From a virus (Duplodnaviria > Heunggongvirae > Uroviricota > Caudoviricetes), in the IMG/VR virus record IMGVR_UViG_2576861193_000002: 64,000 nt of DNA, one strand, 5' to 3'. Position numbers and translations under genes: made by a program. The notes under the pieces are model-generated. The model worked only from the letters and a program-made list of their open reading frames with translations, was not told the origin of the DNA and searched no databases. Shown here piece by piece: positions 35,041 through 35,359 of this stretch. Every line of letters begins with the position of its first letter. Position 1 is the stretch's first letter.

Positions 35041-35109
35041 CTATTGAGTCAGCGCGGCCATGGTAAGAACAATCGCAACGATCAGGAAAAAGAAATCAAG
35101 CCATTTCAT
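35041..35109 (-). CDS. micro-ORF 1 of tandem array, single-TM peptide (22 aa)
   Basis: AGGTGA RBS; MKWLDFFFLIVAIVLTMAALTQ. Confidence 0.35.
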   Translation of the reverse strand: MKWLDFFFLIVAIVLTMAALTQ

Positions 35110-35125
35110 TTTAATCACCTGCGAT

Positions 35126-35197
35126 TCAACTAAGATTTAAAATCACCGCAATAACAACGATCACTACAATCATGCAAAAGAAGTCTGCTTCTTTCAT
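35126..35197 (-). CDS. micro-ORF 2, single-TM peptide (23 aa)
   Basis: GAGGG RBS; MKEADFFCMIVVIVVIAVILNLS. Confidence 0.35.
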   Translation of the reverse strand: MKEADFFCMIVVIVVIAVILNLS

Positions 35198-35274
35198 CTT
35201 TTTAACCCTCGATAGAAATCAACGGCAATGACTGCAATAACAGCCACCAGCAAAAGCATTTCGTATGCGTTCAT
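35194..35274 (-). CDS. micro-ORF 3, single-TM peptide (26 aa)
   Basis: MNAYEMLLLVAVIAVIAVDFYRGLKR; stop overlaps ATG of micro-ORF 2. Confidence 0.35.
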   Translation of the reverse strand: MNAYEMLLLVAVIAVIAVDFYRGLKR

Positions 35275-35284
35275 GTGAATACCT

Positions 35285-35359
35285 TCAGCTTTCGATGAAT
35301 ATCATTATCGCCAGCCATACAGCGACGCATAAAGAAAGGATAACGAGCGGGTCAATCAT
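35285..35359 (-). CDS. micro-ORF 4, single-TM peptide (24 aa)
   Basis: GAGG RBS; MIDPLVILSLCVAVWLAIMIFIES. Confidence 0.35.
   Translation of the reverse strand: MIDPLVILSLCVAVWLAIMIFIES

Follow-up and report, generated by a model that had tools for sequence, protein, structure and literature searches.

A modular tandem array of micro-genes for putative membrane peptides upstream of the terminase genes in mEp021-type prophages

Here we analyse a series of very small genes in the 64,000-nt stretch of phage DNA held as IMG/VR record IMGVR_UViG_2576861193_000002 (hereafter the window), the host element of which is a mEpimmI/mEp021-type prophage of Escherichia coli. Five minus-strand open reading frames (ORFs) encoding peptides of 22-27 aa lie head to tail between a gene for a zincin-like protein and terS, the gene of the small terminase subunit. 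We hold with good confidence that all five are genuine genes, expressed together, that their products are micropeptides embedded in the membrane, and that they form a modular array. The window carries the short form of this array, which is lineage-specific and comprises 2-13 cassettes drawn from about 24 families. The ORFs themselves, the purifying selection acting upon them, the signals of translational coupling, the modular variation and the distribution of charge and hydrophobicity along the peptides are all directly observed.

Coding status and modular organization

The original prediction described four such ORFs at 35041-35359, between the lysis cassette and the terminase, and both the positions and the translations it gave match exactly. 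A fifth member, at 34888-34971, had been overlooked, and the proposed location holds on one side only: terS adjoins the array, but the zincin-like gene separates it from Rz. All of these features lie on the minus strand. ORF1 (35285..35359, family F00; 24 aa, MIDPLVILSLCVAVWLAIMIFIES) begins with an ATG 2 nt past the stop of the zincin-like gene (35362..35904; 180 aa), which carries an HExxH motif and forms the 5' boundary of the array. ORF2 (35194..35274, F01; 26 aa, MNAYEMLLLVAVIAVIAVDFYRGLKR) follows, its stop overlapping, as ATGA, the start of ORF3 (35126..35197, F10; 23 aa, MKEADFFCMIVVIVVIAVILNLS), an accessory cassette. Next come ORF4 (35041..35109, F02; 22 aa, MKWLDFFFLIVAIVLTMAALTQ) and, beyond a 69-nt spacer (34972..35040) with a small hairpin (GCGCAT-TTT-ATGCGC), ORF5 (34888..34971; 27 aa, MKYPSSWLGVSIYFATLIECLYIVNKF), which belongs to F16, a variant of the near-core family F04. 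The stop of ORF5 lies 10 nt ahead of the ATG of terS (34392..34877), the 3' boundary, which encodes an Sf6-type small terminase (Pfam PF20901, Sf6_terminase, E=2.8e-37), and the Shine-Dalgarno (SD) sequence of terS stands directly after that stop. ORF1 to ORF4 are all ATG-initiated, with consecutive segments in different frames, and each has, as originally proposed, an SD-like motif of its own, purine-rich and placed 5-9 nt upstream (GAGG, GAAGG, GAGGG and AGGTG, respectively), with duplex energies of -3.9 to -6.4 kcal/mol. A GTG at 35118 could in principle serve ORF4, yet its use is unlikely because the position falls inside the SD.

The comparison with related phages and prophages extended this picture considerably. 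Our sample comprised 54 loci, 7 from coliphages of the mEp021/mEpimmI group and 47 from IMG/VR contigs, with the 180-aa protein as anchor. Every one of them (54/54) holds a same-strand array of hydrophobic micro-ORFs, with 3-13 ORFs per anchor-terS interval; the interval spans 318-1154 bp, of which the micro-ORFs fill 50-100% (typically 75-100%), and hydrophobic ORFs are almost absent from its reverse strand. The 479 cassette instances, 20-47 codons long, fall into about 24 families at 60% identity and keep a fixed order: [F09/F17/F14/F19/F13] F03 [F18/F15] F00 F06 [F20] F08 F01 [F10] F02 F05 F07 F11 F12 [F04 or F16] - terS. Presence or absence of families gives 41 architectures among the 54 loci, all collinear; the set of the window (F00 F01 F10 F02 F16) recurs in mEp021 and mEp515. 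F00, F01 and F02 are each present in 50/54 loci, F04 or F16 in 48/54, and F10 in 19/54. Sequence conservation of single cassettes can be high, F02 DNA being 93-98% identical among otherwise divergent arrays of E. coli prophages. The distribution is narrow: a distant blastn search with the longest array as query found array DNA in 7/50,697 phage records, those of the seven mEpimmI phages. Array DNA also occurs in 31/5,426 complete E. coli genomes, every inspected case being a mEpimmI-like prophage. A tblastn search of the same phage records with F12 and ORF2 found only the seven mEpimmI phages, its sensitivity being poor for queries of 22-26 aa.

Unconserved reading frames in related phages had been set beforehand as a finding that would count against the micro-genes; across the 54 loci the frames are strongly conserved. 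Pairwise Nei-Gojobori dN/dS (omega) lies at 0.09-0.40 in frame for 15 of 16 families, against about 0.5-3 for the same DNA read in the two shifted frames. Among the families of the window, omega is 0.31 for F00 (0.75 and 1.34 shifted), 0.25 for F01, 0.30 for F10, 0.14 for F02 (1.7 and 3.0 shifted) and 0.31 for F16, while F04 reaches 0.09. Polymorphic sites are distributed over codon positions 1/2/3 as 125/78/230 (chi-square p=6e-19). Short polar motifs at the N-terminus are invariant (M-x-D-P in F00, MNAY[E/D] in F01, and likewise M[R/K]EADFFC and MK[W/L]LD), and substitutions in the hydrophobic core are conservative, consisting of I/V/L/F/M/A/T exchanges. Taken together, frame-specific purifying selection, invariant motifs and conservative core changes show that the cassettes are real protein-coding genes.

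This evidence also bears on a reading where the peptide sequences are irrelevant, the ORFs being either chance products of T-rich DNA or a ribosome relay, a chain of upstream ORFs that couples terS to the gene before it. A relay would agree with the chain ending 10 nt before terS in 41/54 loci, with the terS SD beside the last stop, and with the dispensability of most cassettes. Nonetheless, the frame-specific omega and the codon-position constraint amount to selection on amino acids, the N-terminal motifs do not vary, and a relay needs neither 13 cassettes nor conserved peptides. Chance is further countered by the density of the ORFs. We counted them with a strict detector, which requires an ATG start, a length of 18-60 aa, a mean hydropathy >0.7 and one 15-mer that is strongly hydrophobic. 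It returns 4 matches in the 484-bp interval of the window, whereas 2000 dinucleotide shuffles average 0.08 matches and never exceed 2; over both strands of the whole window its density is 0.14 per kb per strand, the array being ~60 times denser. We regard sequence-irrelevant ORFs as improbable; an added coupling role toward terS, especially for ORF5/F04, is nevertheless possible beside a role of the peptides themselves.

The four ORFs first noticed had been taken for paralogues, which is true of part of the array. ORF3 and ORF4 are clearly similar (z=5.4, a score reached by 0/2000 shuffles), F10 and F02 DNA aligning at about 80%, and F10 is also a paralogue of F11 (z 6.7). The similarity of ORF2 to ORF3 is marginal (p~0.014), while neither ORF1 (p 0.37-0.75 against the other ORFs of the window) nor ORF5 (against ORF1-4) shows any beyond composition. 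Array-wide, the paralogue groups are F01/F15, F06/F23, F02/F10/F11, F04/F16 (z=11) and F09/F17/F14. DNA alignments of the window with long arrays place the cassette breakpoints at the junctions of SD, ATG and first codons. For instance, the F00-F01 junction of the window amounts to the F00-F06 and F08-F01 junctions fused within 'tcacATGAA'. The 69-nt spacer is probably a deletion scar, since longer arrays hold F05-F07-F11-F12 at the same place; positions 384-424 of the interval have no counterpart in long arrays. Its hairpin was also considered as a terminator or other RNA element and rejected, as it folds no better than shuffled sequences (z=-1.06). Overall, these comparisons point to an array that evolves by tandem duplication and by precise modular gain and loss at SD-ATG junctions.

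A very different origin, from a multi-pass membrane-protein gene that decayed and was split by stops and frameshifts, is in our view close to negligible. It would explain consecutive hydrophobic segments on one strand, and a rare natural fusion does join two cassettes into a single two-helix ORF (F25 = F03+F00). However, each segment has its own ATG and SD, lies in a different frame from its neighbour and is under purifying selection, cassettes are gained and lost as precise units, and no homologues were found among longer proteins.

Translational coupling and operon context

Initiation signals are stronger across the arrays than expected from their surroundings, the mean SD:anti-SD duplex energy being -5.1 kcal/mol versus -2.9 kcal/mol at random ATGs of the same loci (p=5e-17). 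Neighbouring ORFs are packed 2-17 nt apart or overlap, and stop-to-start distances, which range from -8 to +17 nt, cluster at -4, -8, +2, +4, +8 and +10/11 nt. Such spacings indicate a translationally coupled chain. A consensus scan for sigma-70-like promoters (10/12 matches or better) found no sense-strand site in the 47.5 kb of arrays, against 12 in shuffles, and the corresponding scan of the window found no convincing promoter or terminator inside the array. Given the lack of sense promoters and of an internal terminator, together with the coupling signals, the array looks like an internal part of a long rightward, presumably late, operon that is translated as a coupled chain. On the antisense strand 12 sites were found versus 8 in shuffles, none conserved over F00, F01, F10, F02 and F16 in the 54 arrays. 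One antisense sigma-70-like site, TTGACA-17 nt-AATGAT, recurs inside the F08 cassette of 7 loci (L003, L005-L007, L011 and others), a family absent from the window; no other promoter-like site recurs at a fixed position in any array.

These results weigh on the original suggestion that the peptides are type I toxin-like, that is, membrane toxins held in check by antisense small RNAs and stabilizing the prophage. In size and hydrophobicity the peptides do match IbsC (19 aa), and such systems are known on prophages (PMC12648545). In E. coli, IbsA-E, ShoB, TisB, Ldr and Hok are likewise very small hydrophobic peptides of the inner membrane, and ibs and ldr also occur as multiple paralogous copies. 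A type I toxin gene usually comes with a promoter of its own, a long structured 5' untranslated region and a dedicated small-RNA gene. The micro-genes, in contrast, form one operon between two protein genes, and their separation, down to ATGA overlaps, leaves no room for untranslated regions; nor did the consensus scan or Rfam reveal a promoter or a cis-encoded antisense RNA of the kind that accompanies the stand-alone toxin genes. The proposed search for antisense small-RNA promoters thus ended with a single weak 9/12 match in the window array, and the only Rfam match across 33.5-37.5 kb, at a permissive E-value, was a spurious one to a snoRNA. Furthermore, TisB and ShoB are amphipathic and the array peptides are not. 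Type I modules are accordingly a most improbable reading of the locus, although a toxin-like biophysical action of the peptides, by analogy a depolarization of the membrane, is possible and a plausible effect in common.

The zincin-like gene upstream offers another alternative, where the peptides are substrates or partners of a peptidase, being processed into products similar to bacteriocins or to ribosomally synthesized and post-translationally modified peptides and released at lysis. Its 180-aa product has no Pfam hit but shows an invariant HExxH...E signature and a Lys/Glu-rich C-terminal tail; the AlphaFold model has a pLDDT of 90 and matches zincin-like folds weakly. We describe it as a probable minimal zincin-like metallopeptidase. 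It belongs to phrog_1365, a family of roughly 120-aa proteins whose genes directly precede those of the terminase in many unrelated enterobacterial phages and which looks like an uncharacterized, conserved 'pre-terminase' minimal metallopeptidase. A scan of genome contigs with the protein returned no relative. The constant position of the gene immediately upstream of the array, its translational coupling across a 2-nt gap and its invariant signature would suit a processing enzyme. On the other hand, 36 distant phages have a homologue before their terminase genes and none has a micro-ORF array beside it: terminase-sized genes come next and our detector gives 0-1 matches per 1.5 kb, which also served as its negative control. 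Where the anchor has diverged to 61-64% identity, the cassettes stay almost unchanged, which speaks against co-evolution, and in mEp013 an HNH gene intervenes between the two. The peptides, moreover, have no leader or cleavage motif, are neither amphipathic nor cationic, and lack transporter or modification genes nearby. The 36 array-less phages led us to reject the gene and the array as a functional pair; with the unchanged cassettes beside a diverged anchor and the arrangement in mEp013, they mark the array as a lineage-specific insertion at the peptidase/terS junction rather than a conserved partner of the peptidase. That the peptides are its substrates is accordingly as doubtful to us as the toxin-antitoxin reading.

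Predicted membrane architecture and known small membrane proteins

Despite their diverse sequences, the peptides of the array share a simple design. Over 23 families, uncharged cores of 13-30 residues (13-19 in the window) are flanked by N-terminal segments with a summed net charge of -23 and C-terminal segments with one of +9. The core measures 19 residues in ORF1, 17-19 in ORF1, ORF3 and ORF4 taken together, and only 13 in ORF2. The acidic N-flank, uncharged core and neutral or basic C-flank predict single-span inner-membrane peptides with the N-terminus outside and the C-terminus in the cytoplasm (N-out/C-in). N-out/C-in single-span proteins such as the Pf3 coat are built from an acidic N-tail, then a hydrophobic helix, then a basic C-tail. 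Membrane insertion was estimated on the Hessa biological hydrophobicity scale, with position effects ignored and scores summed over 17 residues. On this measure ORF1, ORF3 and ORF4 score -0.8 to -4.2, like IbsC, KdpF and the Pf3 coat; ORF1 (-4.2) is comparable to IbsC and KdpF, and ORF3 reaches -3.8. The transmembrane-helix prediction asked for at the outset thus returned favourable scores for these three but a marginal one for ORF2. Similarly, ORF1, ORF3 and ORF4 combine a length of at most 50 aa with one bilayer-length hydrophobic segment, as small single-span proteins do, while ORF2 and ORF5 are marginal. The helical hydrophobic moment of the window peptides is 0.1-0.6, versus 1.2-1.5 for TisB, ShoB and PSM-alpha3. 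Both the conservation and the hydrophobic architecture are consistent with the single-helix micro-genes originally proposed, and the charge and hydrophobicity pattern suits the 'membrane-modulating peptides' that they were suggested to encode.

Several known groups of proteins resemble the array peptides to some extent. The host small membrane proteins (KdpF, 29 aa; AcrZ; MgrB; MgtS; CydX; YohP, 27 aa) likewise consist of 20-50 residues, approximately one transmembrane helix and very short flanks (PMC12648545, PMC7549839), and the hydrophobicity score of KdpF equals that of the array peptides. They too have been missed by annotation, and their insertion is presumably post-translational, via YidC, SecYEG or the signal recognition particle; the insertion routes of such proteins have been reviewed (PMC12648545, PMC7549839). 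However, they are single genes tied to a target operon, whereas the array strings up to 13 unrelated and paralogous cassettes into a phage late operon, with combinatorial presence and absence. The major coat proteins of Pf3 and M13 are YidC-dependent N-out/C-in single-span phage proteins. They share with the array peptides the sequence of acidic N-tail, single hydrophobic helix and basic C-tail, a layout that drives membrane-potential-assisted translocation of the N-tail; yet they are 44-50 aa virion components of filamentous phages, while the array peptides are half that size, come from a tailed temperate phage and share no sequence similarity with them. Finally, holins, antiholins and 'holin-like' genes by lysis cassettes, as in mycobacteriophage Cluster O (PMC4351075), are small membrane-protein genes that come directly after lysis genes and are suspected of affecting lysis, but no tandem rows of 20-30-aa cassettes are reported for them. 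Holins known so far are at least 65 residues long, with 1-4 transmembrane domains and a charged C-terminal domain. We rejected a holin or antiholin identity for the array peptides, given their 22-27 aa, the lack of any PHROGs match for those of the window and the presence of a canonical 66-aa holin nearby (see below).

The small size of the cassettes has largely hidden them from public annotation, as the original prediction anticipated. The stretch is unannotated in the GenBank record of mEp021 (MH706966), PHANOTATE-based records call some cassettes, often in the wrong frame or with the wrong length, and RefSeq either leaves it empty or calls an antisense ORF of 129 aa. When ten peptides were looked up for exact matches among ~15 billion proteins, none of the five in the window was found; two longer cassettes from other arrays were present, unnamed or as 'hypothetical'. 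PHROGs profile searches with the peptides gave nothing significant, the best being F12, also from outside the window, against a holin PHROG (E=0.04). Conserved phage genes for products of at most 50 aa, many of them transmembrane, were reportedly predicted on a large scale by Fremin et al. in 2022 (Cell Reports, 'Thousands of small, novel genes predicted in global phage genomes'). A paper on the mEpimmI phage group does not mention a micro-gene array, and no description of one was found in a preprint on the Enterobacteriaceae microproteome, in a review of small membrane proteins or in keyword searches that included the peptide strings. Small phage membrane proteins are a known kind, whereas for a tandem array like this one, collinear yet combinatorially variable and with up to 13 micro-genes between lysis and packaging genes, we found no description.

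Neighbouring genes, possible roles and significance

Some observations weigh against embedding all five peptides in the membrane as products of one late operon. The uncharged cores of ORF2 and ORF5 are short, at 13-16 residues, their insertion scores are marginal (+1.7), and the SD of ORF5 is weak (-2.9 kcal/mol). Arrays can be as small as 2-3 cassettes, as in L021 and in L058, a more distant relative with only two; phage growth can therefore do without most cassettes, and nothing points to one essential role. We infer late timing from gene order, orientation and the absence of promoters, and translation, membrane insertion, topology and physiological role from the features described above. 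Lastly, a terminator-like hairpin with a T-run (CCCTGCGG...GCGGGGGTTATATTTTT; 35925-35965, minus strand) stands just upstream of the zincin-like gene. It corresponds to 'TERM_6' in the mEp021 record, was missed by our consensus scan because of its long loop, and could attenuate transcription into the block formed by the zincin-like gene, the array and the terminase genes.

The lysis genes lie further upstream. Rz, with an embedded Rz1 (36184-36669), precedes the zincin-like gene and is itself preceded, on the minus strand, by an HNH_3 endonuclease gene (36642-37163, E=5e-14), a lysozyme gene (37153 to about 37645) and the holin gene (37646-37846; 66 aa, two transmembrane domains, PF16080 in a homologue). 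The mechanical ORF of the lysozyme has 205 aa, its true start being probably an internal Met around 37645. The resulting N-terminus, MISQSLKNRLTKAAAGGTLAIASVLLVW, resembles a signal-anchor-release (SAR) domain, and the gene follows a holin with two transmembrane domains; the lysis system may therefore pair a pinholin-type holin with a SAR-type endolysin. The HNH gene of the window stands inside the lysis cassette, between lysozyme and Rz/Rz1; in relatives an HNH gene is found at the zincin-array junction (mEp013) or between terS and terL (L058), or is absent (mEp021), a variation which suggests mobile homing-type endonucleases hopping around the region.

Other observations concern more distant parts of the element. 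The prophage resides in the E. coli chromosome, next to Rac-prophage genes (intR, recT, ralR) on the left (window 1-3000) and with its own integrase adjoining dgcM at its right end (61000-64000). In the early region, at 48341-48585 on the minus strand, two adjacent, ATGA-overlapping small ORFs each encode a single helix, one of 44 aa from a GTG (40 aa from an ATG, MKVGKDIVTVAFCIICFLFVVVFCGALAAVISLIGKGVML) and one of 37 aa (MNLAKIAALLAALSIAVLYLSVSLYITVAIIKLITNM); their DNA is conserved in 7/7 mEpimmI phages, and mEp021 is annotated there with a 'putative toxin-antitoxin system subunit'. A third detector match (48251-48331), which overlaps an ORF of 90 aa, is probably spurious. Among the relatives, RefSeq names the gene after terL in L055 (6591-7964) and L056 (6473-7843) 'anti-CBASS protein Acb1 family protein'; elsewhere the homologous position is taken by a Phage_portal_3 (PF06381) portal gene, and the Acb1 name is probably an artefact.

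How the array might act can be outlined as follows. Ribosomes would run from the zincin-like gene through the cassettes into terS, and the peptides would insert post-translationally into the inner membrane as single N-out/C-in helices, like the Pf3 coat or the host small membrane proteins, and would act there late in infection. Our preferred proposal for their role, a tentative one, is a tuning of membrane energization and thereby of the time at which a lysis system gated by the membrane potential fires. SAR-endolysin lysis systems fire on depolarization, and accumulating IbsC-like helices could advance or buffer the trigger of such a system. We find it comparably likely, and hence just as tentative, that each peptide binds and blocks a specific membrane protein of host or phage, in superinfection exclusion or counter-defence; the hypervariable gene content together with the sequence conservation of each cassette resembles accessory anti-defence loci. 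Specific intramembrane ligands are familiar in the host, where AcrZ, MgrB, KdpF and SgrT bind particular membrane proteins. A bolder version, which we consider less likely again, is a combinatorial 'toolkit' where every micropeptide would specifically inhibit, within the bilayer, its own target among the membrane proteins of the host or of competitors, for example the DNA-entry channels of superinfecting phages, membrane-embedded defence sensors and effectors, insertases or proteases, and where precise cassette exchange among close phage relatives would reshuffle the set. If true, the locus would be a previously unrecognized kind of phage accessory locus, an analogue of anti-defence gene islands that is directed at membranes and composed of proteins as small as they can be.

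Small membrane proteins are a recognized but badly under-annotated class, and here up to 13 putative members occupy a single hypervariable locus in phages of a group that is reportedly common in the human gut (PMC11893012). Their near absence from public records is a caution for annotation pipelines with length cut-offs of 30 codons or more. The locus amounts to a compact library, made by nature and validated by evolution, of predicted transmembrane helices of 20-30 residues with clear presence/absence variation, in a system that is experimentally tractable in E. coli K-12. It thus lends itself to questions about the action of phage micropeptides in membranes, be it in lysis timing, exclusion or counter-defence, and about how micro-genes are born, duplicated and exchanged.

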